Origin: Promethearchaeota archaeon
GTDB taxonomy: Archaea > Asgardarchaeota > Lokiarchaeia > Sigyniarchaeales > SOKP01
Reading direction: 5' to 3'
Assembly (NCBI GenBank): GCA_048940925.1
Contig: JBHLOC010000024.1
Span: forward strand, 1-64,000
Length of the DNA: 64,000 nucleotides
Position 1 is the stretch's first letter. Every line of letters starts with the position of its first letter. Made by a program: the position numbers and the translations under genes. Below are positions 53,003 through 64,000 of the stretch, in pieces. The notes beneath the pieces are model-generated. The model saw only the letters and a list, made by a program, of their open reading frames with translations. It was not told where the DNA came from and did not search any database.

Positions 53003-55237
53003 TTAACTAAAATATTTTTTAATTAAAAATTCAAGGCTTTCCCACTTTTCAATAACACTACAAGTATCTTTTATATTTTTAACTAAAACCTTATACTCAT
53101 TATCAAATTCCTTGACTATAGCTTCAAGTTTTCTTTGAATTATTAATAGATCTTCTTTAACTACAAGTGCAAAAATAATATCATTTGTATTGTTGGTTTG
53201 AAAAATTATTTTACGATCTCCATGATCTACTGTCCTTATCTGTTTTTCGCCTTGAGCAACTAGTTTTAATATTGATAACATTCCAATTATTCCACCTGAA
53301 ATTAAAACAGAGTCATATTTCTCTTTTGTGCCTTCTACAAAAGGATGATCATAAAGCAGAATTCCTGATTTATAAATAATATAAATATAAATTAATGAAT
53401 TGATCCAATTTTTTAAAGGTAATCTTATAATAAATTTAGCTCCTTTATCTTTTCCTTTTGATTCAAAAATAATTTGACCTCCATGTAGATCAATGATTTC
53501 ATTTGAAAATTGTAATCCAAGTAAAGATTCTTGCGAATTCAATAAATTTCTTTTTAAATAGATTCTATTTTTTTCTAGTTCTGTTAATCCAACACTATTA
53601 TTTTTTATAGTTATTTGAGCAAAATTATTACTTTTTTGTAAACATATTGATATATCAACTTTCTTAGAAGTATTTTTTATTATATACAGTAATAAATCTT
53701 TAATCACGTGCACCATTCTAACCTTATCGACCTCTGAGTACAAATCTTCTGATATATCTAATGCAAGATTAAATTTTCGCTTATTTATATTACTCATTAT
53801 ATCATCTATCGATTCTCTAATTATCTCGATTATACTCTCTGTTTGCTTTTTTAATTTTAATTTATCAGATTCAATTCTAGAAATATCTACAATTCTTTCA
53901 ACCAAATTTATTGATTTTTCTCCTCCACTTTTAATTAATTCTAACAGTTGTATCGCATTTTGATCTAATTTATCTTTATATGAGTTTAAAAGAATTTTGG
54001 ATGCATTAGACATAACATTTAATGGTGATTTCAATTCTTTTGAGGTTTGGGCAGTTAATTCCTTTTTAACTTGATCCAATTTCCTTAACCTCTCATTTTC
54101 TTCTTTAATAATCTTTTCTGCTAATTTCTTTTCAGTTATATCCTGCACAATAACTTGAATATATTTTTTACTCCCAATTTTTAATGATGAGAAAAAACAT
54201 TCAACCCAAGCTATATTATAGTCTTCATCATGATACATAAAATCTATAATTTCACTTAAATCATAATCAAAAGCATTTTGAATTATTTCTTTAACTGAAT
54301 CAAGTTGGTTTTCATTTATTTGGAAAATATCAAAAAAAGATTTACCTTTTAATTCCTCTTTAGGTTTATTTAAATAGATTTTAGCAAGGCTATTGCAATC
54401 ATGAACATTTTTGTTCAAATCTAATAAAATTATAGGATAGGGAAAGTTTTCAACCAGATTTCGAAATTTTTCTTCGATATTTTTACGATCTGTTATATCC
54501 CTTATTATATCTATTATTGCTTGTTGACCGTTAAAATTAAATGTCGGAGTACAATTATATTCAAAATATTTTTTCTCATATGTCATAGGATCTATAAATT
54601 CTTTTTCAAATCTAATAACATCATAATTATTTGTTAATTTATTAAAAGTACAATGTTCACACACATTTTCTCTATTCATTAAAACATTATAACAAATATT
54701 TCCACTAAGATGAGATCCAAATTCTTCTTCTGCTTTTCTATTCAGGTATAAAATTCTGTGATCTTTCGAGATGACTATAATTGAATCATTAACATTTGAT
54801 AATATTAAATTTAATTTTGCTTCTGATTCTTTGATTTCTTGCTCGATTTTCTTACGTTCGGTTATATCTCTTCCAATTTTAACTATCTCCTCTATCTTTC
54901 CATCTTTAGTCTTGAGTGGGTACGCTAAAAGTTCCACATACGCTTCTTCTCCGTTTATATGATGAGTATGGATAACCTCACAAAATTGCCCAGTTCTTAA
55001 TACACTCTCAACTGGACATTTACATTCTGGTGGTCTACAAATCTTTTTTCGATTGTGAGTTAATTTATAACATTTTCTTCCTATAGCCTCTTTTTTAGAC
55101 ACACCATATTTTAAACAAAAAGTTTTGTTTACATCTATTATTCTATAATTTTTATCTAAAACCGTTATTTCATCGAATATAGAATCAAAAATTAACGTTA
55201 AATAATCAATGTCTTGAATTCTTTTGTTTTCCAGCAT
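53003..55237 (-). CDS. PAS-PAS-PAS pseudo-histidine kinase with C-terminal longin-like domain
   Basis: H-box SKELKSPL (His replaced by Lys); degenerate N/G1/G2 boxes; tail YIIYKSGILLYD...LISGGIIG...IRTVDHGDRKIIF. Confidence 0.85.
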   Translation of the reverse strand: MLENKRIQDIDYLTLIFDSIFDEITVLDKNYRIIDVNKTFCLKYGVSKKEAIGRKCYKLTHNRKKICRPPECKCPVESVLRTGQFCEVIHTHHINGEEAYVELLAYPLKTKDGKIEEIVKIGRDITERKKIEQEIKESEAKLNLILSNVNDSIIVISKDHRILYLNRKAEEEFGSHLSGNICYNVLMNRENVCEHCTFNKLTNNYDVIRFEKEFIDPMTYEKKYFEYNCTPTFNFNGQQAIIDIIRDITDRKNIEEKFRNLVENFPYPIILLDLNKNVHDCNSLAKIYLNKPKEELKGKSFFDIFQINENQLDSVKEIIQNAFDYDLSEIIDFMYHDEDYNIAWVECFFSSLKIGSKKYIQVIVQDITEKKLAEKIIKEENERLRKLDQVKKELTAQTSKELKSPLNVMSNASKILLNSYKDKLDQNAIQLLELIKSGGEKSINLVERIVDISRIESDKLKLKKQTESIIEIIRESIDDIMSNINKRKFNLALDISEDLYSEVDKVRMVHVIKDLLLYIIKNTSKKVDISICLQKSNNFAQITIKNNSVGLTELEKNRIYLKRNLLNSQESLLGLQFSNEIIDLHGGQIIFESKGKDKGAKFIIRLPLKNWINSLIYIYIIYKSGILLYDHPFVEGTKEKYDSVLISGGIIGMLSILKLVAQGEKQIRTVDHGDRKIIFQTNNTNDIIFALVVKEDLLIIQRKLEAIVKEFDNEYKVLVKNIKDTCSVIEKWESLEFLIKKYFS

Positions 55238-55251
55238 TTTTTCGCTTTTTT

Positions 55252-56838
55252 TTAATAGATATTTATATTTATTCCATTTAGAATATCCTTATTAATATTG
55301 GGAAAGCTAAGTTCAATTAGGATGATAAACTTACTTCCTTCTCGATAATCTCCTTTAGCCCTATCCTCAACCCAAATTTGTCCATTATATTCTTCTATTA
55401 TTTTTTTTACCAATGATAGCCCCAATCCCATGTTAATGCTATTTCTCACTTTTTTTTCTGCACGCAGAAAAATTTTTTCTTTCATATTATCTGGTACCCC
55501 CATCCCATTATCAATAAATTCTAATTTGAGATATTTAATGTTATTTTTTTGTTCTTTAGAGATCTTGATAATTATTTCTATTATTTGATGGTTGTTATGT
55601 CTTATAGCATTTATTAAAATATTTTCAAATACGTCAAGTAAGAGGTCGTTTGCTTTAACATAAAATTTTTTGTTAGGGGGATAAACTTGAATATTAATTT
55701 TTTTACCTTTGTAACTTTTGATTACATACTGAATTGAACGTTTTAATACTTCATTAACTTCGATTGATGTTATAGATAATCCAGTTTCTTCAATCTCAGA
55801 AAGTTTTCTTACATTAGAAACTAAATTTGCCCCTCTGATAACCTGCTCTATAGCAATATTTATCAATTCATCTACATTTTCATTTCCTTTAAAATTTTTT
55901 AAATATAAAGATAGAAGCTCCAATGATGATTCTATACTTTGAAAAATATTATTAATGTCGTGAGCAAAGAGATCCTTATAGAAATTCGCACGGTTATAAG
56001 CTTCGCGATATTTTTTTTCTGAATCAATTAAAATTTTTTCCGCATTTTTCCTATAGGTTATATCTCTTACAATATCTACTATTGCTGGTTGGCCATTAAA
56101 GTTTTCAATTGGTGTACATCTGTATTCATAAAATTTATTATCATTAGTTAAAGGTTTGATAATTTTAGATTCAAAACTAATAACTCTATTATTTGTATTA
56201 ATAAATTTAGTAAAAGTACAATTTTCACATACATTATCTCTATTCATTAGAACATCATAACAAATATTTCCACTAAGATGAGATCCAAATTCTTCTTCTG
56301 CTTTTCTATTCATGTATAAAATTCTGTGATCTTTTGAAATGACTATGATGGAATCATCCACATTTGATAATATTGTATTCATATTTGATTCGGATTGTTT
56401 AATTTCTTGCTCAATTTTCTTGCGTTCGGTGATATCTCTTCCAATTTTAACTATCTGCTTTATCTTACCATCTTTTGTCTTGATTGGATAGGCTAAAAGT
56501 TCGACATACATTTCTTCACCATTTATATGATGAATATGAATAGTCTCACTGAATTGCCCAGTTTTTAATACATCTTCAACGGGACATTTACATTCTGGTG
56601 GTCTACAAATCTTTTCTCGGTTGTGAGTTACCTCATAACATTTTCTTCCTATTGTTTTATCTCTAGAAACACCATATTTTAAGCAAAAAGTTTTATTTAC
56701 ATCCATTATTCTATAATTTTTATCTAAAACTGTTATTTCATCAAATATAGAGTCAAAAATTGATAATAAAGGATCCTCTTCTTGATCTTTTTGTTTTTTT
56801 CTAATAATGTTCACCTTTTTTCTTAAAAAAACTATCAT
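55252..56838 (-). CDS. PAS-PAS sensor histidine kinase
   Basis: H-box AHDINN, N-box ENILINA, G1 DNGMG and G2 GLGL. Confidence 0.92.
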   Translation of the reverse strand: MIVFLRKKVNIIRKKQKDQEEDPLLSIFDSIFDEITVLDKNYRIMDVNKTFCLKYGVSRDKTIGRKCYEVTHNREKICRPPECKCPVEDVLKTGQFSETIHIHHINGEEMYVELLAYPIKTKDGKIKQIVKIGRDITERKKIEQEIKQSESNMNTILSNVDDSIIVISKDHRILYMNRKAEEEFGSHLSGNICYDVLMNRDNVCENCTFTKFINTNNRVISFESKIIKPLTNDNKFYEYRCTPIENFNGQPAIVDIVRDITYRKNAEKILIDSEKKYREAYNRANFYKDLFAHDINNIFQSIESSLELLSLYLKNFKGNENVDELINIAIEQVIRGANLVSNVRKLSEIEETGLSITSIEVNEVLKRSIQYVIKSYKGKKINIQVYPPNKKFYVKANDLLLDVFENILINAIRHNNHQIIEIIIKISKEQKNNIKYLKLEFIDNGMGVPDNMKEKIFLRAEKKVRNSINMGLGLSLVKKIIEEYNGQIWVEDRAKGDYREGSKFIILIELSFPNINKDILNGININIY

Positions 56839-56856: not shown

Positions 56857-56985
56857 TTATATCTTGAGCGAAGTGTAACCACATTGATTACAAACAATTT
56901 CACCCATTTGTTTTATTGAAATTATATCCCTGGCACATTCCGGACATGAATTAAAGGTATTAATCTTTTCCTTTATTATTACCAA
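56857..56985 (-). CDS. 42-aa stand-alone TFIIB-type zinc ribbon
   Basis: Not in track: MVIIKEKINTFNSCPECARDIISIKQMGEIVCNQCGYTSLKI (TTG start). Confidence 0.72.
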   Translation of the reverse strand: MVIIKEKINTFNSCPECARDIISIKQMGEIVCNQCGYTSLKI

Positions 56986-57245: not shown

Positions 57246-57911
57246 TTACTTCAATTGTTGTATTTTTTTTATAATTTCTTTAAGGTATAAATCTCCCATC
57301 CCTAAACGAACAGTATTAGAAAGAATTAATGTAATTATAAGTGATACATTACTAATTTGAATAAATTGGGAAAAAATTTTTTGATCATTTTCTAGAACTA
57401 AAAAATATTTTTTCACCATTATTAGATTTTTCTCATTTCTTACTTCGAATTCTCTGATCGTGTGAAATAATGTTTTCAATGGTAAAGATGAGTATAGAAC
57501 TTTTCCTTCTAATGTAAAGAGAGAACTTCCAAGAATATTATTTCCATCTACATAGTTTCTTAAAAGCCTAATTAAATCTTGAGAAAACGATAACATATTA
57601 AAAAATGAATTTTTATTTTTCTCCTGTGTTCCTTTAAATTCTAAGGATTCAATTGTATCATCATAAAATTCTATTCTCGATAATTCAAAATCAACTTTTT
57701 GATATCCTCTAACTTTAAAATTTTTATCTACAAATAATTGAAAGGTGTGTTTACAAACTAATCCAGAAGGGACAGAAACTGTAGTTAATCGCTTATTTTG
57801 GTTTATTATTTGAAATGGAATTTTCAAAATTTTCTTTTGATTACATAAGGGACACTGTATTAGAACATTTTGAGTATAATTTTCGTAACCAATATTTTCT
57901 TTATTAATCAA
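57246..57911 (-). CDS. Zn-ribbon plus roadblock/longin-like domain protein
   Basis: CPLC...CKH..VDKNFKVRGYQ; C-terminal ILGSSLFTLEGKVLYSSLP. Confidence 0.7.
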   Translation of the reverse strand: MINKENIGYENYTQNVLIQCPLCNQKKILKIPFQIINQNKRLTTVSVPSGLVCKHTFQLFVDKNFKVRGYQKVDFELSRIEFYDDTIESLEFKGTQEKNKNSFFNMLSFSQDLIRLLRNYVDGNNILGSSLFTLEGKVLYSSLPLKTLFHTIREFEVRNEKNLIMVKKYFLVLENDQKIFSQFIQISNVSLIITLILSNTVRLGMGDLYLKEIIKKIQQLK

Positions 57912-57940: not shown

Positions 57941-59401
57941 TTAAATTTTATTATGAGTTTTACTTAGATCAAGAAATTTTTCTTCAAAATACAATTCCTT
58001 TTCCTTCACATAATACTGACAATTTTGCTTTTCTAATCCAGTTACATAAATATTTTTTCTGGTACACCAATAAAGCCCTGTTGGATTTGGATTATATGCA
58101 TATTTACAATCCGAAGAAATAAACTCCTTTTTTTCTTCCCTCCAATTAAAAAATTCAAACAATTTTTGGCAGTGTCTTCCAGAGTTTTTATCAAATGGAT
58201 AACTCATTATACAATGAGTTCCAGTTCCCGTTTTTCTAAGTTTTACAGGAACAAATCCTAATCTAGTAAAAAATTTTAATTTATATGGAATACATTTCGC
58301 AACTAATAAGAAGACATTAAATTTATCATATTTTTCTAGTTCATGGTGAAACATAAATTCAACAAATTTTGATCCTAATCCCATTCTCCTATAATTCTCT
58401 TGAACTTCTAATGTGTCGAAATAAAAAATATACGTATTGTTATGTTTAAATAAAAATATTAAATTTAAACAGCCAATAATTCTATTAGTACCATTTATGA
58501 TATAATGTGAGTGATTCAAATAACCAAAATGCCAAATCCCTGGATTTTTAATATTTTCAAAAAATTTCTGCGGTAAATTTTCTCTTCGAACCATTTTAAA
58601 TATATAATCTTTTAAGAGTTTTCTCAAATGAGGTGATAGTTTACCAAAGATTTTTTCATTTCGTTCCTTTAAACGCCATAATGGAATTATGTTCTTTTCA
58701 ATTATTGGATATAACTCATTCCTTTCGATGACACTCTCTAAAGCTGACGAAACATAATCTTCTAAACCAAAATGTTGATCTTTTAACATATTTATAAGGA
58801 TCTCTACTGCTTTTTTATCACCTATACTTCCTAATGCTTCAATAATGTTTTTTTTAATTAGGAATTTCAAATTTTTTTTTGACAGCATTTTAATTAACTT
58901 ATCCACACATCGATAATCACCTATTATTCCAAGAGTCCATATAATATCTTTCTTAATCCAATCGTTTTCTCTTTCCAATAGGTTTAGTAAAATTTCTACT
59001 GAATGATTATCCCCAATATAAGCAAGTGCTAATATAACACTTTTCCTAATATAAATATTATTGTCTTTTAATAATTCAAATAAGTCTTTTAAAGTATTAT
59101 TATCTCCAATTCTCCCCAATCCTTCAATGGCATATTGTCGAATTCTTACTTTAATATCCTCATTAGAAGCGATTTTAAGTAATAATTTGACATTATCTTT
59201 TCCAATTTTCCCAATTATTTTTGGAACTAAATATGAAGACCCTTTAAAGTAAGTGTTTAACAAAGAAATAAGAGTTTCATAATTGCCATTTTTTTCTAAA
59301 GCTAAAACTGCCTTTCTTCTAATGCTAGGATCATCATGATTTAAATTTTCAAGTAAAACTTCATTAATTATTCTTTCATTAATCTTCTTTTTCCCCAACA
59401 T
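57941..59401 (-). CDS. HEAT-repeat / GNAT acetyltransferase / three-Cys domain fusion
   Basis: PBS-lyase-type HEAT repeats (ALGSIGD), GNAT motif A VQENYRRMGLGSK and FFTRLGF, C-terminal C-x13-C-x14-C. Confidence 0.85.
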   Translation of the reverse strand: MLGKKKINERIINEVLLENLNHDDPSIRRKAVLALEKNGNYETLISLLNTYFKGSSYLVPKIIGKIGKDNVKLLLKIASNEDIKVRIRQYAIEGLGRIGDNNTLKDLFELLKDNNIYIRKSVILALAYIGDNHSVEILLNLLERENDWIKKDIIWTLGIIGDYRCVDKLIKMLSKKNLKFLIKKNIIEALGSIGDKKAVEILINMLKDQHFGLEDYVSSALESVIERNELYPIIEKNIIPLWRLKERNEKIFGKLSPHLRKLLKDYIFKMVRRENLPQKFFENIKNPGIWHFGYLNHSHYIINGTNRIIGCLNLIFLFKHNNTYIFYFDTLEVQENYRRMGLGSKFVEFMFHHELEKYDKFNVFLLVAKCIPYKLKFFTRLGFVPVKLRKTGTGTHCIMSYPFDKNSGRHCQKLFEFFNWREEKKEFISSDCKYAYNPNPTGLYWCTRKNIYVTGLEKQNCQYYVKEKELYFEEKFLDLSKTHNKI

Positions 59402-59476: not shown

Positions 59477-59926
59477 TCAATGTAATGAACTTATATTACC
59501 TAAACTTTCATTTTGCTCATGATCGGAAAAATATTTTGATAATTTTCGAATCGTTTGATTTAATTCAAATAGAATTACACCTAAGTTTAAATAAATTGGA
59601 AATATAACTGAAAGCCTTATATCGTATGTGACTGATTCAAGAACAATGATAAATCCGTCATTATCTAGTTGATCCCCTGCTTGAATTAAAACCTGTTTTA
59701 TTTTATTGTTTTCTTTTAATATCTCGACACAGTTTTCAGCCAAAGAGACAATGCCAGCACTCAATGCACTAATAGATTGATGATAATTTTCATCTTCGTT
59801 GAAATTTATGCGATCTACTGTAATTAAAAAACCATCTTCAGTAAATAAGGTGGAACTCACTATACCTGTCCTATCTCTAAACGATTTTAAAATATTTTGG
59901 ATTTCTTTTTCCTGCATACTAACCAT
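59477..59926 (-). CDS. roadblock/LC7 (MglB-like) protein
   Basis: STLFTEDGFLI, ISALSAGI and NLGVILFE. Confidence 0.85.
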   Translation of the reverse strand: MVSMQEKEIQNILKSFRDRTGIVSSTLFTEDGFLITVDRINFNEDENYHQSISALSAGIVSLAENCVEILKENNKIKQVLIQAGDQLDNDGFIIVLESVTYDIRLSVIFPIYLNLGVILFELNQTIRKLSKYFSDHEQNESLGNISSLH

Positions 59927-60590
59927 CTTGGACGACTACCTCCTTTTCACCAATATTATTTTCATTCGTTTCATTACTTACAAATTTTAGTATTTGTATA
60001 ATCGCATCTTTTATCCCTATATTATATTTCGCAGATCCTTTGAATACTCGTTCACCTATCATATTTGAAATCATATCACAACCATGGTAATCATCTCTAT
60101 CTGATTTATTTGCAATAATCCTCATGGGAATAGTATTTCCTAAATTAACTTTAGTTTCTTCTAAAATTACTAATGCATTTCCAATATTCGCTAAATCACA
60201 ACCATCTATTAAAAAGATTACACCATCACTTCCTTTTGCTAAAATTTTTCGAACAGCAGAAAATTGAATTTGACCAGGACATCCTTTTAATTCAAGTTCA
60301 TTTATAAACCACCCTAAATATTCATCTCTATCTCTTAAATATTCACTCTCACTCATTATTACTCCTTCCGTTTCATAATTTAAATTTGGTCTCGCCCATA
60401 TCAGTCTTCCTAAATCAAAACCTGTAGTAGTATGCGTTTTATCTTCGTCATATGCTTTATGTAATTCTTTTTCAACATGGATTGCCTTCCCATCAAGAGT
60501 GTGCACTAAGGTACTTTTTCCAGAATTAAAGAATCCTGTTATGAAAATTTTTACCTTTTTGTCATTCAATTTATAATTCCCACATCCCAA
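59919..60590 (-). CDS. MglA/CvnD-type small GTPase
   Basis: GFFNSGKST, TTTGFDLG, GCPGQ, NKSD and SAK; overlaps the roadblock gene. Confidence 0.88.
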   Translation of the reverse strand: MGCGNYKLNDKKVKIFITGFFNSGKSTLVHTLDGKAIHVEKELHKAYDEDKTHTTTGFDLGRLIWARPNLNYETEGVIMSESEYLRDRDEYLGWFINELELKGCPGQIQFSAVRKILAKGSDGVIFLIDGCDLANIGNALVILEETKVNLGNTIPMRIIANKSDRDDYHGCDMISNMIGERVFKGSAKYNIGIKDAIIQILKFVSNETNENNIGEKEVVVQDG

Positions 60591-60905: not shown

Positions 60906-61382
60906 ATGGCTAATTATAAACAATTATCTGATTTTTTAAATGCCATGACTGGTGTAACTGTTGAATCTTTATTAAATATGGGACTAAATATTCCCTTAAT
61001 TTGGAATGAATTTGCGAATTCATTTAATAAAGATGGAGTCAAGGGCTTTCTAAAGGATTGTGGATTGGTGATCGATGGCTCTGATGTTAAATCGATAACA
61101 GAAGATTTTGCAAAAAAAGTAAAGGAGGTTGGTTTTTGTCAAAGGGCAAATATCATAGAAGCTAATGACAATAAAGTTGTTTTAGATCTTGGAGAATGTG
61201 TTTTAGCTCCTGTAACAAAAGTTATAAGAGGTACTGATTTGAACATGATACCTCCTTGTCCAATGATGGCTCTTTTATATGGTACGATAGAAACAAAAAC
61301 AGGAAAAAAGGGATCTATTGAGAAAGCAGAGTGGAAACCTGAAGAAAATACAACAATTTTTACATTGAATTTGGAGGGATAA
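60906..61382 (+). CDS. V4R / methanogen-output-domain-like small-ligand or metal-binding protein
   Basis: GFC...LDLGECVL...PPCPM..L pattern. Confidence 0.6.
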   Translation: MANYKQLSDFLNAMTGVTVESLLNMGLNIPLIWNEFANSFNKDGVKGFLKDCGLVIDGSDVKSITEDFAKKVKEVGFCQRANIIEANDNKVVLDLGECVLAPVTKVIRGTDLNMIPPCPMMALLYGTIETKTGKKGSIEKAEWKPEENTTIFTLNLEG

Positions 61383-61386
61383 AGAA

Positions 61387-61512
61387 ATGGCCAAATCAGA
61401 CTGCATTCATGCTGGAGATGAAAATTCTGAAGGTTTAGTTTGGTGTAATAAAAAAAATATTTATGTTTCAGCAAAAGAGAAGGACACATGTCCCGATTAT
61501 AAACCAAAATAA
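61387..61512 (+). CDS. 41-aa three-Cys microprotein
   Basis: Not in track: MAKSDCIHAGDENSEGLVWCNKKNIYVSAKEKDTCPDYKPK; GGAGG upstream; fits between neighbours; homologous to 58010-58114. Confidence 0.88.
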   Translation: MAKSDCIHAGDENSEGLVWCNKKNIYVSAKEKDTCPDYKPK

Positions 61513-61528: not shown

Positions 61529-61894
61529 ATGAGTGCAAAAGAACAAAAAGTGAAGGATATATTATTTGACCTAGAAAAAAATTCAGAAGTGTCTAATAGT
61601 GCTCTTGTATCGTTAAAAGGACAGATGATGGCGAGCGCGTTACATAAAGACGTTGACGATAGAGCTGTAGCAGCAATGACTGCAGCATTAACATCAGTTG
61701 GAGCCAGAGTTGCCGAGACACTAAATTCCGGAAAAACAGGATCTATTTTCATTACCGGAGATAGTAGATTAATTGTATTGCACCAATTGGCTCAAGCAGT
61801 ACTAATTGCGATAGCTCCTGCTGATGCAAAAGTAGGTTTAATTGATTTCGAAGTAAATGCTGCTCTGGATAAAATAAAAATGGTTCTAGGATAA
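61529..61894 (+). CDS. roadblock/LC7 (MglB-like) protein
   Basis: Start corrected to MSAKEQ after AGGTG; SALVSLKGQMMAS, VAAMTAA and KVGLIDFE. Confidence 0.9.
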   Translation: MSAKEQKVKDILFDLEKNSEVSNSALVSLKGQMMASALHKDVDDRAVAAMTAALTSVGARVAETLNSGKTGSIFITGDSRLIVLHQLAQAVLIAIAPADAKVGLIDFEVNAALDKIKMVLG

Positions 61895-61999: not shown

Positions 62000-62455
62000 A
62001 TGATTTTGTTAGAAATAAAAGAAAAGCTAATAAAATTATTAGATGATCTTATTACCAACACGAATATAAGTAGTACTAGTTTAATAACAGAAGATGGTTT
62101 AGTTATTGCTGTAAACAGTGAACAAGACATTGACGATGAGGAAATTAACTATAATTTTGCGGCAATTTCAGCTAGTATGTTGTCAATGGCAGAAAGAGGG
62201 ATAGAAATTATTAATGCAAATAAAATACTAGAACAAATTAAAATTGATGCTGGTTTAAACGAAAATATTGACGCTGATTTTACAATCTTAATCACGAGAG
62301 TCTTTTCTAATGTACTTTTACAATTAATTTTTCCTAAAAGAATTAATATTGGATTAATTCATTTCGAAACTAACAAGATCATTAAAGAAATAAGAAATGT
62401 AGTTCAGGAAGATACTTCTAGAGAACTTTTTACAAGTCTAGGTTCTCTTACATAA
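62000..62455 (+). CDS. roadblock/LC7 protein (paralogue of 59477..59926)
   Basis: SLITEDGLVIA, FAAISASM and NIGLIHFE. Confidence 0.88.
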   Translation: MILLEIKEKLIKLLDDLITNTNISSTSLITEDGLVIAVNSEQDIDDEEINYNFAAISASMLSMAERGIEIINANKILEQIKIDAGLNENIDADFTILITRVFSNVLLQLIFPKRINIGLIHFETNKIIKEIRNVVQEDTSRELFTSLGSLT

Positions 62456-62515: not shown

Positions 62516-64000
62516 TTGAATAATGATAAAAATCACGAAAATGATAATAAAGTTAATGAGAATGATATAAAAAAACATTCTATAAAAGATTATAATTCCT
62601 ATGGGTTAAAAGAAAAAGTAAAATTTTATGAAGAAGAAGATCTTAGCTCAGAAGTAAAAAACGTTCTTAATGAAGTTTTTACAGATATGAATAAAGTTGA
62701 TGACAATGTTGAGACAAAAATCAGTGATGAATATGAAGAGTCAAAAACTGAGCCTTCTATTACTGATGAAAGTACAATTAGAGTAAGTAAAAACGATTTG
62801 AAAAAAGAAATAGGTCAACAAAATATTGGACTTTTTAATAATATCGAAGAATTAAAAGAGACACCAGAAAAGATCTTAGAAAACCTAAAGAAAGAGGATT
62901 ACAGTTCTTTTAAACATAAGTTGACCCTATTAAAAGAATTGGAATCGTTTCACGAGAATAAATTAAAAGAATTAGAAGAAAAAATTAAAGTTTATAATGA
63001 GAAACATAAAAAATTAGAAAAAACAATTGAAGAATATGATGAGAGAAACAATGAACTAGTAGAAAAGAGAAAAGAATACGAAGAGAGAGTAAAAGAATTT
63101 GAAGAAAAAAGCAAATCAATGGAAGAAAGTAAAGAAGAATTAATGCAACGCGTTAAACAATTAGAAGAAAGTAAAGAAGAATTTACAGACCGAAATACAA
63201 AATTAAAGGAAGCAAGAGAACAATTTATGGAATTGAGTAAGCAAATGGAGGAGAAAAAGAGAGATCTGGAGAAATGGGAAAGAAAATTGGAAAAATTGCA
63301 GAAAAATTTGGAAAAAAGTAAATTTGACTTAGAAAGAAACAAAATAGAATTTGAGAAGAATAAGTTAGAATTTGAAATAAGCAAATCAGAATCTGAAAAA
63401 AGCATAGATGTCTTAAGTACAAAAGAAGTTCCAATGGAAATTAAGAGAGAAGAAGACAGAATTACTATATTGGATAAAAAGGAGAAGAAAAAAGGTAGAG
63501 CGGCAATTTTGCAAGATATGCTAGAAGAATTATCATATAAAGGAGATTTTCAATCATGTCTTTTAATAGATGGGAAGGGAATGTTAATTTCGGAACATTC
63601 TAAGAAAAAATTGGATGAGATGGCAATAGGCGCAATGTTTTCATTAGTTTGCACAAATATATTAAGAGCTATTAAAAGTTTAAATTTACAAGAATTAGAA
63701 TATTTTAAAATGGCCTCTACTAATGGAGAATTTATGCTTAAAAATATCGATATCACAAATTATGAGAGAAATTTTATACTTATAGCACATTATATTAAAT
63801 CAGACTCAATTCTCCCAGATATTACGCAGAAAATAAATAAGAAAGCAATTAAGAAAATTTTGGATAGTGTAAAAAGGGATTTTAATGAATTTGGAAGAGG
63901 AACCAAAATTTCTTGGGTTTTTGATAATTTAGAAAATAAAGTTAATTTTTTAAAAGAAACATATAAAACACCAGAAAAAGATGTAGAATTAATAAGAAGA
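62516..64000 (+). CDS. acidic region + long coiled coil + roadblock-like domain protein (3' truncated by window)
   Basis: Not in track (no stop). TTG at 62516; E/K heptads ~62880-63400; CLLIDGKGMLISE...IGAMFS at ~63490-63800. Confidence 0.8.
   Translation, partial: MNNDKNHENDNKVNENDIKKHSIKDYNSYGLKEKVKFYEEEDLSSEVKNVLNEVFTDMNKVDDNVETKISDEYEESKTEPSITDESTIRVSKNDLKKEIGQQNIGLFNNIEELKETPEKILENLKKEDYSSFKHKLTLLKELESFHENKLKELEEKIKVYNEKHKKLEKTIEEYDERNNELVEKRKEYEERVKEFEEKSKSMEESKEELMQRVKQLEESKEEFTDRNTKLKEAREQFMELSKQMEEKKRDLEKWERKLEKLQKNLEKSKFDLERNKIEFEKNKLEFEISKSESEKSIDVLSTKEVPMEIKREEDRITILDKKEKKKGRAAILQDMLEELSYKGDFQSCLLIDGKGMLISEHSKKKLDEMAIGAMFSLVCTNILRAIKSLNLQELEYFKMASTNGEFMLKNIDITNYERNFILIAHYIKSDSILPDITQKINKKAIKKILDSVKRDFNEFGRGTKISWVFDNLENKVNFLKETYKTPEKDVELIRR

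Follow-up and report, generated by a model that had tools for sequence, protein, structure and literature searches.

A three-cysteine microprotein paired with a TRAPPC3/V4R-fold protein in Roadblock and GTPase operons of Asgard archaea

A microprotein of 41 residues with three cysteines, encoded in a 64,000-nucleotide stretch of the genome of a Promethearchaeota archaeon (hereafter referred to as the window), is obligately paired with one family of TRAPPC3/V4R-fold proteins across Loki-, Thor-, Hermod- and Helarchaeota, and the pair usually forms part of an operon that also contains Roadblock genes and an MglA-like GTPase gene and is flanked by PAS kinases. Judged by its pattern of substitutions, the open reading frame (ORF) is a genuine gene under purifying selection, and the sequence searches made place the microprotein in the Asgard archaea, to which it is specific within those searches. 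Comparison of its copies indicates that a second copy of the domain was fused once to a GNAT acetyltransferase, in one Lokiarchaeial family. In its predicted fold the microprotein resembles a mini-domain of the high-potential iron-sulfur protein (HiPIP) type, and it may function as one.

Organisation of the locus

The features of the locus are as follows, with the basis of each assignment in brackets.

53003-56838, minus strand: two PAS histidine-kinase-type genes flanking the module (ORFs)
57246-57911, minus strand: final gene of the leftward operon, for a protein of 221 aa that has a CxxC motif at its N-terminal end (ORF)
57941-59401, minus strand: HEAT-repeat and GNAT acetyltransferase protein, 486 aa, with the tethered domain at its C-terminal end (Pfam HEAT_2 E 7e-30, Acetyltransf_7, Acetyltransf_1)
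57998-58123, minus strand: tethered three-Cys domain, core 58010-58114 (BLASTP; HMM match E 4e-28)
59477-59926, minus strand: Roadblock/LC7 protein C, 149 aa (Pfam Robl_LC7 E 1.8e-4; synteny)
59919-60590, minus strand: small GTPase, MglA-like, 223 aa, first gene of the divergent operon (NCBIfam small_GTP E 9e-8)
60906-61382, plus strand: TRAPPC3/Bet3/V4R-fold protein, 158 aa, invariable upstream neighbour of the free microprotein (AF2, Foldseek)
61373-61378, plus strand: Shine-Dalgarno-like GGAGGG, located inside the upstream gene close to its 3' terminus (8 nt ahead of the ATG)
61387-61512, plus strand, stop codon included: free three-Cys microprotein, 41 aa, with C6, C20 and C35 (ORF, conservation, dN/dS, AF2)
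61529-61894, plus strand: Roadblock/LC7 protein A, 121 aa, directly after the microprotein (Pfam Robl_LC7 E 2.3e-9; position kept in nearly all loci)
62000-62455, plus strand: Roadblock/LC7 protein B, 151 aa (Pfam Robl_LC7 E 1.7e-3, which does not reach the gathering score; synteny)
62516-64000, plus strand: coiled-coil protein, continuing beyond the window (open frame; orthologues in the same place)

The GTPase also has weak Pfam matches to Arf and Ras and its nearest PDB sequences are those of MglA (E 1.3e-4, weak), Roadblock B has a weak match to MglB in NCBIfam, and the orthologues of the coiled-coil protein in relatives carry a weak Roadblock-like stretch. The Pfam matches bear out the description of the large protein as HEAT-GNAT in a first-pass annotation of the window, and an acetyl-CoA-type motif, RRMGLGS, is seen in its translation. 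The 221-aa CxxC protein, which matches no Pfam family, is conserved only in HEAT-type loci, with orthologues in three of them (L041, L048 and L066).

The microprotein gene

The frame of the microprotein starts with ATG, runs for 41 codons and ends with TAA; the ATG begins 4 nt past the stop codon of the upstream gene (61380-61382), and GGAG(G/T)G is present at an equal distance before the ATG in most of the orthologues inspected. The three cysteines have the spacing C-x13-C-x14-C that had been read from the sequence at the outset. Comparison with orthologues gave dN/dS values of 0.05-0.24 where these were computable: the closest orthologue has five synonymous and no non-synonymous differences, while in more distant orthologues the synonymous differences (pS 0.6-0.99) are near saturation against pN values of 0.06-0.25. 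The first-pass annotation had named a lack of conservation of the short ORF as evidence against its reading; the ORF is strongly conserved. The same annotation had called the ORF unannotated, which is inaccurate, since public records do call the gene, though with no function or family assigned: the exact sequence is found, unnamed, among the NCBI entries of the protein collection, 'hypothetical protein' is the label given to close relatives (e.g. MEJ2249822.1 and MFX1445106.1) and the gene is called in many metagenome-assembled genomes (MAGs).

Copies of the domain, distribution and the GNAT fusion

Residues 4-38 of the microprotein align gaplessly with residues 430-464 of the 486-aa HEAT-GNAT protein, with 18 of the 35 positions identical (BLASTP E 1e-11) and all three cysteines retained in both copies; the position of the tethered copy on the minus strand is as first reported. 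A six-frame search of the 4.8-Mb genome yielded exactly four copies of the domain, namely the two in the window and another free and tethered pair on a second contig, C51 (E 1e-16 and 5e-8). The match between the free and tethered forms is far beyond chance, given its E-value and the recovery of exactly four copies genome-wide. On C51 the whole nine-gene arrangement is repeated with diverged sequences, the two free forms being 73% identical. The proposal that the domain ties the two divergent operons together is upheld, because the arrangement recurs both on C51 and in many relatives.

A profile built from the four copies, along the lines of the HMM search that the first-pass annotation had proposed, detected the domain in 40 of the 400 genomes of the phylum, which represent 20 of its 85 genera. 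A scan of 185,579 prokaryote genomes, one per species, returned 28 loci, every named one of which belongs to an Asgard MAG (Promethearchaeota/Lokiarchaeia, Thor-, Hermod- and Helarchaeota); the scan used one narrow peptide pattern and is therefore not proof of absence beyond Asgard. When 1.84 billion representative proteins were searched exhaustively with HMMER, only 32 matched; they are either free forms (39-77 aa) or fusions to GNAT (156-475 aa).

Phylogenetic analysis was based on an alignment of the domain comprising 51 distinct sequences. In the tree, the copies tethered to GNAT group in one clade (UFBoot 99, SH-aLRT 96, recovered in 98% of the bootstrap trees), and a single fusion event is therefore suggested. 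Wherever a tethered copy could be assigned to a family, it was the Lokiarchaeial family of the window itself. The fusion proteins occur either with HEAT repeats, at about 490-510 aa as in the window, or without them, at about 200-320 aa as on C51. Within this family, the genomes whose contigs span the whole module carry both forms, free and tethered, at a separation of about 3 kb.

Conservation of the gene neighbourhood

In every locus inspected, the free gene sits between a gene of about 156 aa, which in the window encodes the TRAPPC3/V4R-fold protein, and, nearly always, a Roadblock gene. The Lokiarchaeial loci read leftward in the order kinase(s), (HEAT-)GNAT-domain gene, Roadblock C and GTPase, and rightward in the order 156-aa gene, microprotein, Roadblock A, Roadblock B and coiled-coil protein. 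The genes are all co-directional in Thor-, Hermod- and Helarchaeota, in the order 156-aa gene, microprotein, Roadblock, GTPase and Roadblock, and in Thorarchaeota the 156-aa gene is itself preceded by another free copy. Most of the related loci have kinase-like genes on the flanks of the module.

All 44 matches to the 156-aa family at E <= 1e-45 are followed on the same strand, after 9-40 nt, by the microprotein (one truncated), and the distant microproteins that carry a CxxC motif follow the same gene family too (E 5e-44, 3e-49 and 4e-23). The family occurs in 43 of the 400 genomes, 38 of which also carry the microprotein domain; the five genomes with the family and no domain have weak or partial matches to the family, and the two with the domain and no member of the family hold a tethered copy only, near a contig end. 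In one lineage (L072 and L073) the pair is found with neither Roadblock nor GTPase genes, adjoining an aquaporin and a response regulator. As the pair stands alone there, the TRAPPC3-like gene and the microprotein gene constitute the conserved core unit.

The TRAPPC3/V4R-fold partner

The AF2 model of the upstream neighbour (pLDDT 93) matched in Foldseek the TRAPPC3 structure 6aq3 (E 4.5e-5), TRAPPC3/Bet3 of Naegleria and of the TRAPP of yeast and fly, the TRAPP cores 7e2c and 7b6d, the Thorarchaeota TRAPPC3 crystal structures 7yh3 and 7yh2, the sensor (V4R) domains of PoxR, DmpR and MopR, and H-NOX, with a probability of 1.00 against TRAPPC3 (6aq3, 7b6d_G, 7yh3_C), PoxR/DmpR and H-NOX. The model has the two-layer alpha/beta fold that is common to Bet3, V4R and H-NOX, and the earlier description of the protein as V4R-like therefore holds at the level of the fold. 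At the level of sequence, no Pfam family was matched at E <= 0.1 save for one chance match, the V4R and TRAPP_Bet3 models not being matched, and a search of PDB sequences with the profile of the family found no V4R or TRAPPC3 chain, 7yh2 and 7yh3 included. The neighbour thus belongs to a separate sequence family with the TRAPPC3/V4R fold.

Only C98 and C118 are invariant among the cysteines of this family, and the Thorarchaeotal orthologues have two extra cysteines near the C-terminus that the window copy does not have. The V4R/TRAPPC3 fold is that of a zinc protein in solved Asgard and bacterial examples, and the crystallised Thor-TRAPPC3 has a four-Cys Zn site and not an Fe-S cluster (Tran et al. 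2024, PMC10933270); by analogy with these structures, C98 and C118 would correspond in position to the intramolecular Zn site of V4R proteins. The present locus shares with the proteins treated in that study the same folds (TRAPPC3/V4R, small GTPase and Roadblock) and the same organisms, whereas the neighbour family is distinct in sequence from the crystallised Thor-TRAPPC3. The GTPase genes of strain MK-D1 generally lie outside operons with Roadblock, longin or TRAPPC3 genes (PMC10933270), unlike the TRAPPC3-fold family described here, which lies in a conserved operon with Roadblock genes, a GTPase gene and an obligate microprotein. A term search of Tran et al. 2024 yielded no mention of a small Cys protein. 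A prediction of the complex of the TRAPPC3-like protein with the microprotein scored 0.30 against a mark of 0.32 and is given no weight on either side of the question of binding.

Conserved residues and predicted fold of the microprotein

C6, C20 and C35 are invariant in all 51 sequences of the alignment. A9, G16, W19, K22 and V27 are nearly invariant (W19 in 49 of 51), and the four aromatic sites, 8, 19, 26 and 38, vary little or not at all: all 51 sequences have Y or F at position 38, position 8 is occupied by Y, H, F or W throughout, and residues at positions 8, 26 and 38 are aromatic almost without exception. A fourth cysteine, 2-4 residues before C6, is present in 11 of the 51 relatives as CxC, CxxC or Cx3C; the window microprotein has Lys-Ser-Asp there, with Ser/Lys at the place of the first ligand. 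Its ligands are single cysteines 13 and 14 residues apart with no CxxC knuckle, and some relatives have one CxxC at most, not the two knuckles of a zinc ribbon or rubredoxin. With three cysteines alone in the window protein, a Zn, a single-Fe or a 3Fe site is equally allowed by the sequence.

An AF2 model of the microprotein, built on the 51-sequence alignment, has a pLDDT of 82. When it was compared with 48,161 representative chains, eleven matched at Z >= 2, of which nine are Fe-S proteins of the HiPIP fold (Z 2.2-4.3) and none is a zinc-ribbon or rubredoxin chain. The best match is the C-terminal domain of 2y8n_B, the small (gamma) subunit HpdC of 4-hydroxyphenylacetate decarboxylase (HPAD; Z 4.3, rmsd 1.8 A over 38 of the 41 residues, 24% identity). 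The other HiPIP-fold chains are the beta subunit of benzylsuccinate synthase (BSS; 4pkf_B and 9pzj_E), the small subunit 9o8u_F of (1-methylalkyl)succinate synthase (MASS), with Z of only 2.2-2.8 for the BSS and MASS matches, and five HiPIPs, for which the scores are low and obtained with a predicted model (Z 2.4-2.7, rmsd 1.5-2.0 over 34-37 residues). The Z scores as a whole are low in absolute terms, which is in line with a length of 41 residues, and were obtained with a model that is itself a prediction. Foldseek, run independently, also placed 2y8n_B first (TM 0.66, E 0.35, probability 0.80) and listed the HiPIPs 1pih and 2hip. As judged from alignment ranges only, C6, C20 and C35 would correspond to the HiPIP ligands 2, 3 and 4 in 3h31_A and 1hpi_A, and the additional cysteine carried by the CxxC relatives lies where ligand 1 would be.

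The first-pass annotation could not name the domain, and the sequence methods agree with it, as none of the sequence families in Pfam, NCBIfam and the PDB gave a match. Scans of the microprotein and the 51 family members against Pfam and NCBIfam assigned no family, a PDB sequence search with the family profile gave a chance match alone (E 2), and the stray, sub-threshold Pfam zinc-finger matches each concern one of the 51 members. The HIPIP family (PF01355) was not matched at E <= 1 by any of the 51 members, nor did PF01355 match the domain copies when scanned across the genome. Alignment by hhalign against 31 HiPIPs gave a probability of 0.3-0.5% (P 0.12), and the local, low-mact and global modes were not significant. 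Feature and shape searches of the ESM Atlas returned only the domain's own nameless clusters and uninformative rows. Since the sequence methods are negative, the Z scores low and the model a predicted one, the microprotein is not filed here as a member of the HiPIP family.

The putative metal site and alternative explanations

The reading that we favour, for which and against which we find the case about equally balanced, is that the microprotein is a HiPIP-like metal-cluster mini-subunit that would act with the upstream TRAPPC3/V4R-fold protein. The suggestion in the first-pass annotation of an Fe-S or Zn module with an open fourth ligand is consistent with the HiPIP-like AF2 model and with the fourth cysteine of 11 of the 51 relatives, metal binding, the type of cluster and the partner all being predicted.

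The strongest alternative, which we consider rather unlikely and yet well worth weighing, is a structural zinc or single-iron mini-domain, in which the three cysteines together with Ser4, Asp5 or a residue of a partner would bind one ion, and which would serve purely as a docking tag for itself or for the GNAT enzyme on the TRAPPC3-like/Roadblock complex and would take no part in redox chemistry. Most small Cys domains of archaea bind Zn, and a GNAT fusion that arose once and persisted would fit a docking module. The neighbouring V4R/TRAPPC3 fold is itself that of a Zn protein (PMC10933270), and among the small subunits of glycyl radical enzymes (GREs) MASS-delta is rubredoxin-like with a single Fe (PMC13450708). 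Against this alternative, the cysteines are single and widely spaced rather than paired in CxxC knuckles, and the matches at Z >= 2 are dominated by cubane-binding HiPIP folds. The invariant aromatic residues beside the cysteines also speak against it, as we take them to resemble the cluster cage of the HiPIP type.

A metal site completed in trans, by a cysteine of the TRAPPC3-like protein or by a second microprotein so that the metal bridges two chains, is improbable. It would account for the want of the fourth cysteine in the window protein and for the usual presence of two domain copies per module (free and tethered here, two free in Thorarchaeota), and the TRAPPC3-like partner keeps C98 and C118 and has lost the two further cysteines of its Thor orthologues. 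However, the partners of the three-Cys and four-Cys microproteins show no complementary gain or loss of cysteines, and the positions of C98 and C118 would, on comparison with V4R proteins (PMC10933270), place them in an intramolecular Zn site. The idea in the first-pass annotation that the V4R-like protein completes the site is accordingly not borne out: no cysteine pattern in the neighbours tracks the three-Cys or four-Cys state of the microprotein. The further proposals of that annotation, that the free form dimerises with the tethered form or competes against it, are conjectural.

It is highly improbable that the microprotein is a trans-encoded small subunit of a GRE of this genome, comparable to HPAD-gamma or BSS-beta, with its place in the GTPase cluster incidental. 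The best structural match is to a GRE small subunit and the genome has six PFL-like GRE genes, but none of the six lies on C82 or C51, the two contigs that hold all four domain copies; the adjacency to the TRAPPC3-like gene is strict (44 of 44), and the fusion partner is a GNAT and not a GRE. Known GRE small subunits, moreover, are encoded beside their catalytic subunit. A GRE small-subunit identity was rejected, the PFL-like genes lying on other contigs and the domain copies all in GTPase/Roadblock loci.

That the frame is a chance ORF or a non-coding inter-gene spacer, as its very short length and the lack of a family assignment might suggest, is virtually inconceivable and is refuted by conservation, with dN/dS well under 1 and synonymous sites saturated, the three cysteines invariant across four Asgard classes, the Shine-Dalgarno site conserved and a second copy of the domain inside a long protein.

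Proposed role of the microprotein

If the microprotein is a HiPIP-like subunit of the TRAPPC3-fold protein, C6, C20 and C35 would hold a [4Fe-4S] or [3Fe-4S] cluster, the fourth site of which would be non-Cys or exchangeable in the window protein and Cys in some relatives. The holo-microprotein would dock on the TRAPPC3-like protein as an accessory subunit, in the manner of HPAD-gamma and BSS-beta on their catalytic subunits, and the state of the cluster, as set by oxygen, redox or iron, could modulate the Roadblock/GTPase switch. The tethered copy would subject the acetyltransferase to this signal or bring it to the shared docking site, in possible competition with the free form. In its fullest version, which we regard as doubtful and put forward as speculation, the microprotein would be an obligate Fe-S subunit of an Asgard TRAPPC3/Bet3-fold protein, and the pair would sense oxygen, redox state or iron and set the MglA-like GTPase via Roadblock.

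Comparison with known systems

According to a 2026 review (PMC13450708), the small subunits of GREs resemble HiPIPs and bind [4Fe-4S] clusters, with three cysteines and a histidine as the ligands of one cluster in HPAD-gamma; their roles appear to be structural or regulatory. The HPAD small subunit (HpdC, 2y8n chain B) resembles the microprotein in its domain of about 40 residues, serves a larger protein as an accessory subunit, as is proposed for the microprotein, and has no detectable sequence similarity to it; HpdC is bacterial and has two domains, whereas the microprotein is archaeal and has one, and the partner of the former is a GRE whereas the predicted partner of the latter is a TRAPPC3/V4R-fold protein in a GTPase/Roadblock operon. 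The beta and gamma subunits of BSS and MASS are likewise HiPIP-like mini-subunits with one [4Fe-4S] cluster and a non-catalytic structural or regulatory role (PMC13450708); unlike the microprotein, the small subunits of both enzymes are bacterial, have four Cys ligands and are encoded beside the GRE.

With the HiPIPs (PF01355) the microprotein would have in common the core fold, as predicted. The HiPIP spacing CxxC-x12-16-C-x13-C resembles the CxxC-x13-C-x13/14-C of the four-Cys relatives, and both families have an aromatic residue two positions past the second cysteine and another three past the last. HiPIP has four cysteines in the pattern CxxC...C...C, whereas the window microprotein has three, the first being absent. 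The HiPIP precursors in the HiPIP alignment carry SRRDA leaders of about 35 residues, in contrast to the microprotein, which has no Tat signal peptide and no N-terminal half, its ORF beginning five residues before C6 with no leader. HiPIPs are bacterial periplasmic electron carriers, whereas the microprotein is a cytoplasmic archaeal protein encoded in a signalling operon. A search of the full-text literature found no paper joining Asgard with HiPIP.

The bacterial MglA/MglB modules encode a sensor kinase, Roadblock and an MglA-like GTPase together, as does the present locus, and the actinobacterial conservons consist of a sensor kinase, Roadblock, DUF742 and a GTPase; we know of no TRAPPC3/V4R-fold protein or Cys microprotein in either. 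The HiPIP fold class and the idea of HiPIP-like accessory mini-subunits are already known; the novelty lies in the microprotein family, its archaeal host, the three-Cys form and the association with a TRAPPC3-fold protein within a GTPase operon.

Conclusions

The small GTPases, Roadblock/longin proteins and TRAPPC3-like proteins of the Asgard archaea are read as forerunners of the control of membrane traffic in eukaryotes. To our knowledge, nobody knows which of these proteins cooperate or what signal they answer. The locus described here provides a concrete and conserved set of partners, namely a TRAPPC3-fold family, the microprotein, Roadblock proteins, an MglA-like GTPase and kinases, and adds to it an overlooked component of 40 residues with, as the structural model suggests, a probable metal cluster. 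The microprotein is also a clear example of a functional microprotein left nameless by annotation. Should the cluster exist, redox state, oxygen or iron would provide the module with an input open to testing, and HiPIP-like mini-domains would be used beyond bacterial electron transport and glycyl radical enzymes. If the sensor reading is true, archaeal relatives of the TRAPP core subunit would have sensed signals with a metal-cluster partner that was later lost in eukaryotes, and in one lineage the same tag would also recruit a protein acetyltransferase.

Second copy of the module in the same genome

The entire module is duplicated in the genome of the window, on contig C51, with the sequences of the two copies having diverged. 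Relative to the window copy, the C51 module lacks the HEAT repeats as well as the 221-aa CxxC protein, and its two sides are organised as follows.

L006 3942-12809, one side: two kinases, GNAT-domain protein, Roadblock protein and GTPase
L006 3942-12809, facing side: TRAPPC3-like protein, free three-Cys microprotein, two Roadblock proteins and coiled-coil protein

Cysteine motifs in the associated proteins

The PAS kinase-type proteins of both modules and a small neighbouring ORF also carry cysteine motifs.

Window 55252-56838 and 53003-55237, minus strand: PAS kinase-type proteins
L006 3942-7356: PAS kinase-type proteins of the second module
Window 56857-56985, minus strand: 42-aa ORF with two CxxC knuckles (CPEC ... 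CNQC)

An N-terminal C-x10-C-x4-C-x-C motif (...KCY..THN..KICRPPECKCPVE...) is common to all four of these kinases, and with it the first PAS domain could bind a metal or a cluster. The 42-aa ORF, located between the kinase and the 221-aa gene, was matched in Pfam to the TFIIB-type zinc ribbon, weakly and under the cut-off (E 0.0017).

In the TRAPPC3/V4R-fold neighbour of the microprotein (window 60906-61382, plus strand), comparison with the aligned orthologues identified C98 and C118 as the only invariant cysteines, while two more are present near the C-terminus in the Thorarchaeotal orthologues and one more in the C51 paralogue; the presumed Zn site of the window copy thus looks degenerate.

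Glycyl radical enzymes

The Lokiarchaeial genome of the window contains six genes for PFL-like glycyl radical enzymes, all of full length (contigs C78, C63, C55, C35, C32 and C39; E 1e-147 to 1e-226), and none of these genes is close to the microprotein loci.

Variant forms and copy number of the microprotein

The 90%-identity cluster of the window microprotein in the protein collection (cluster 1) also contains 474-aa bacterial mannose-1-phosphate guanylyltransferases, whose inclusion seems to be an artefact of how the collection was clustered and not biology. In L072/L073 (2521-4814), the TRAPPC3-like gene is followed by a 77-aa CxxC form whose C-terminal tail is long and charged; the next genes encode a MIP channel and a response regulator, in place of Roadblock and GTPase genes. 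Protein P0029 (115 aa) carries the first half of the domain at its N-terminus, as far as the WC motif, and runs on into a glutaredoxin-like CPYC motif; it may be a fusion protein or result from a frameshifted gene call. In six Thorarchaeotal loci (L052, L053, L057, L059, L060 and L061), the TRAPPC3-like gene has a second free microprotein gene ~220-260 nt upstream of it. Both copies are thus free in Thorarchaeota, whereas the family of the window combines a free copy with a GNAT-tethered one.
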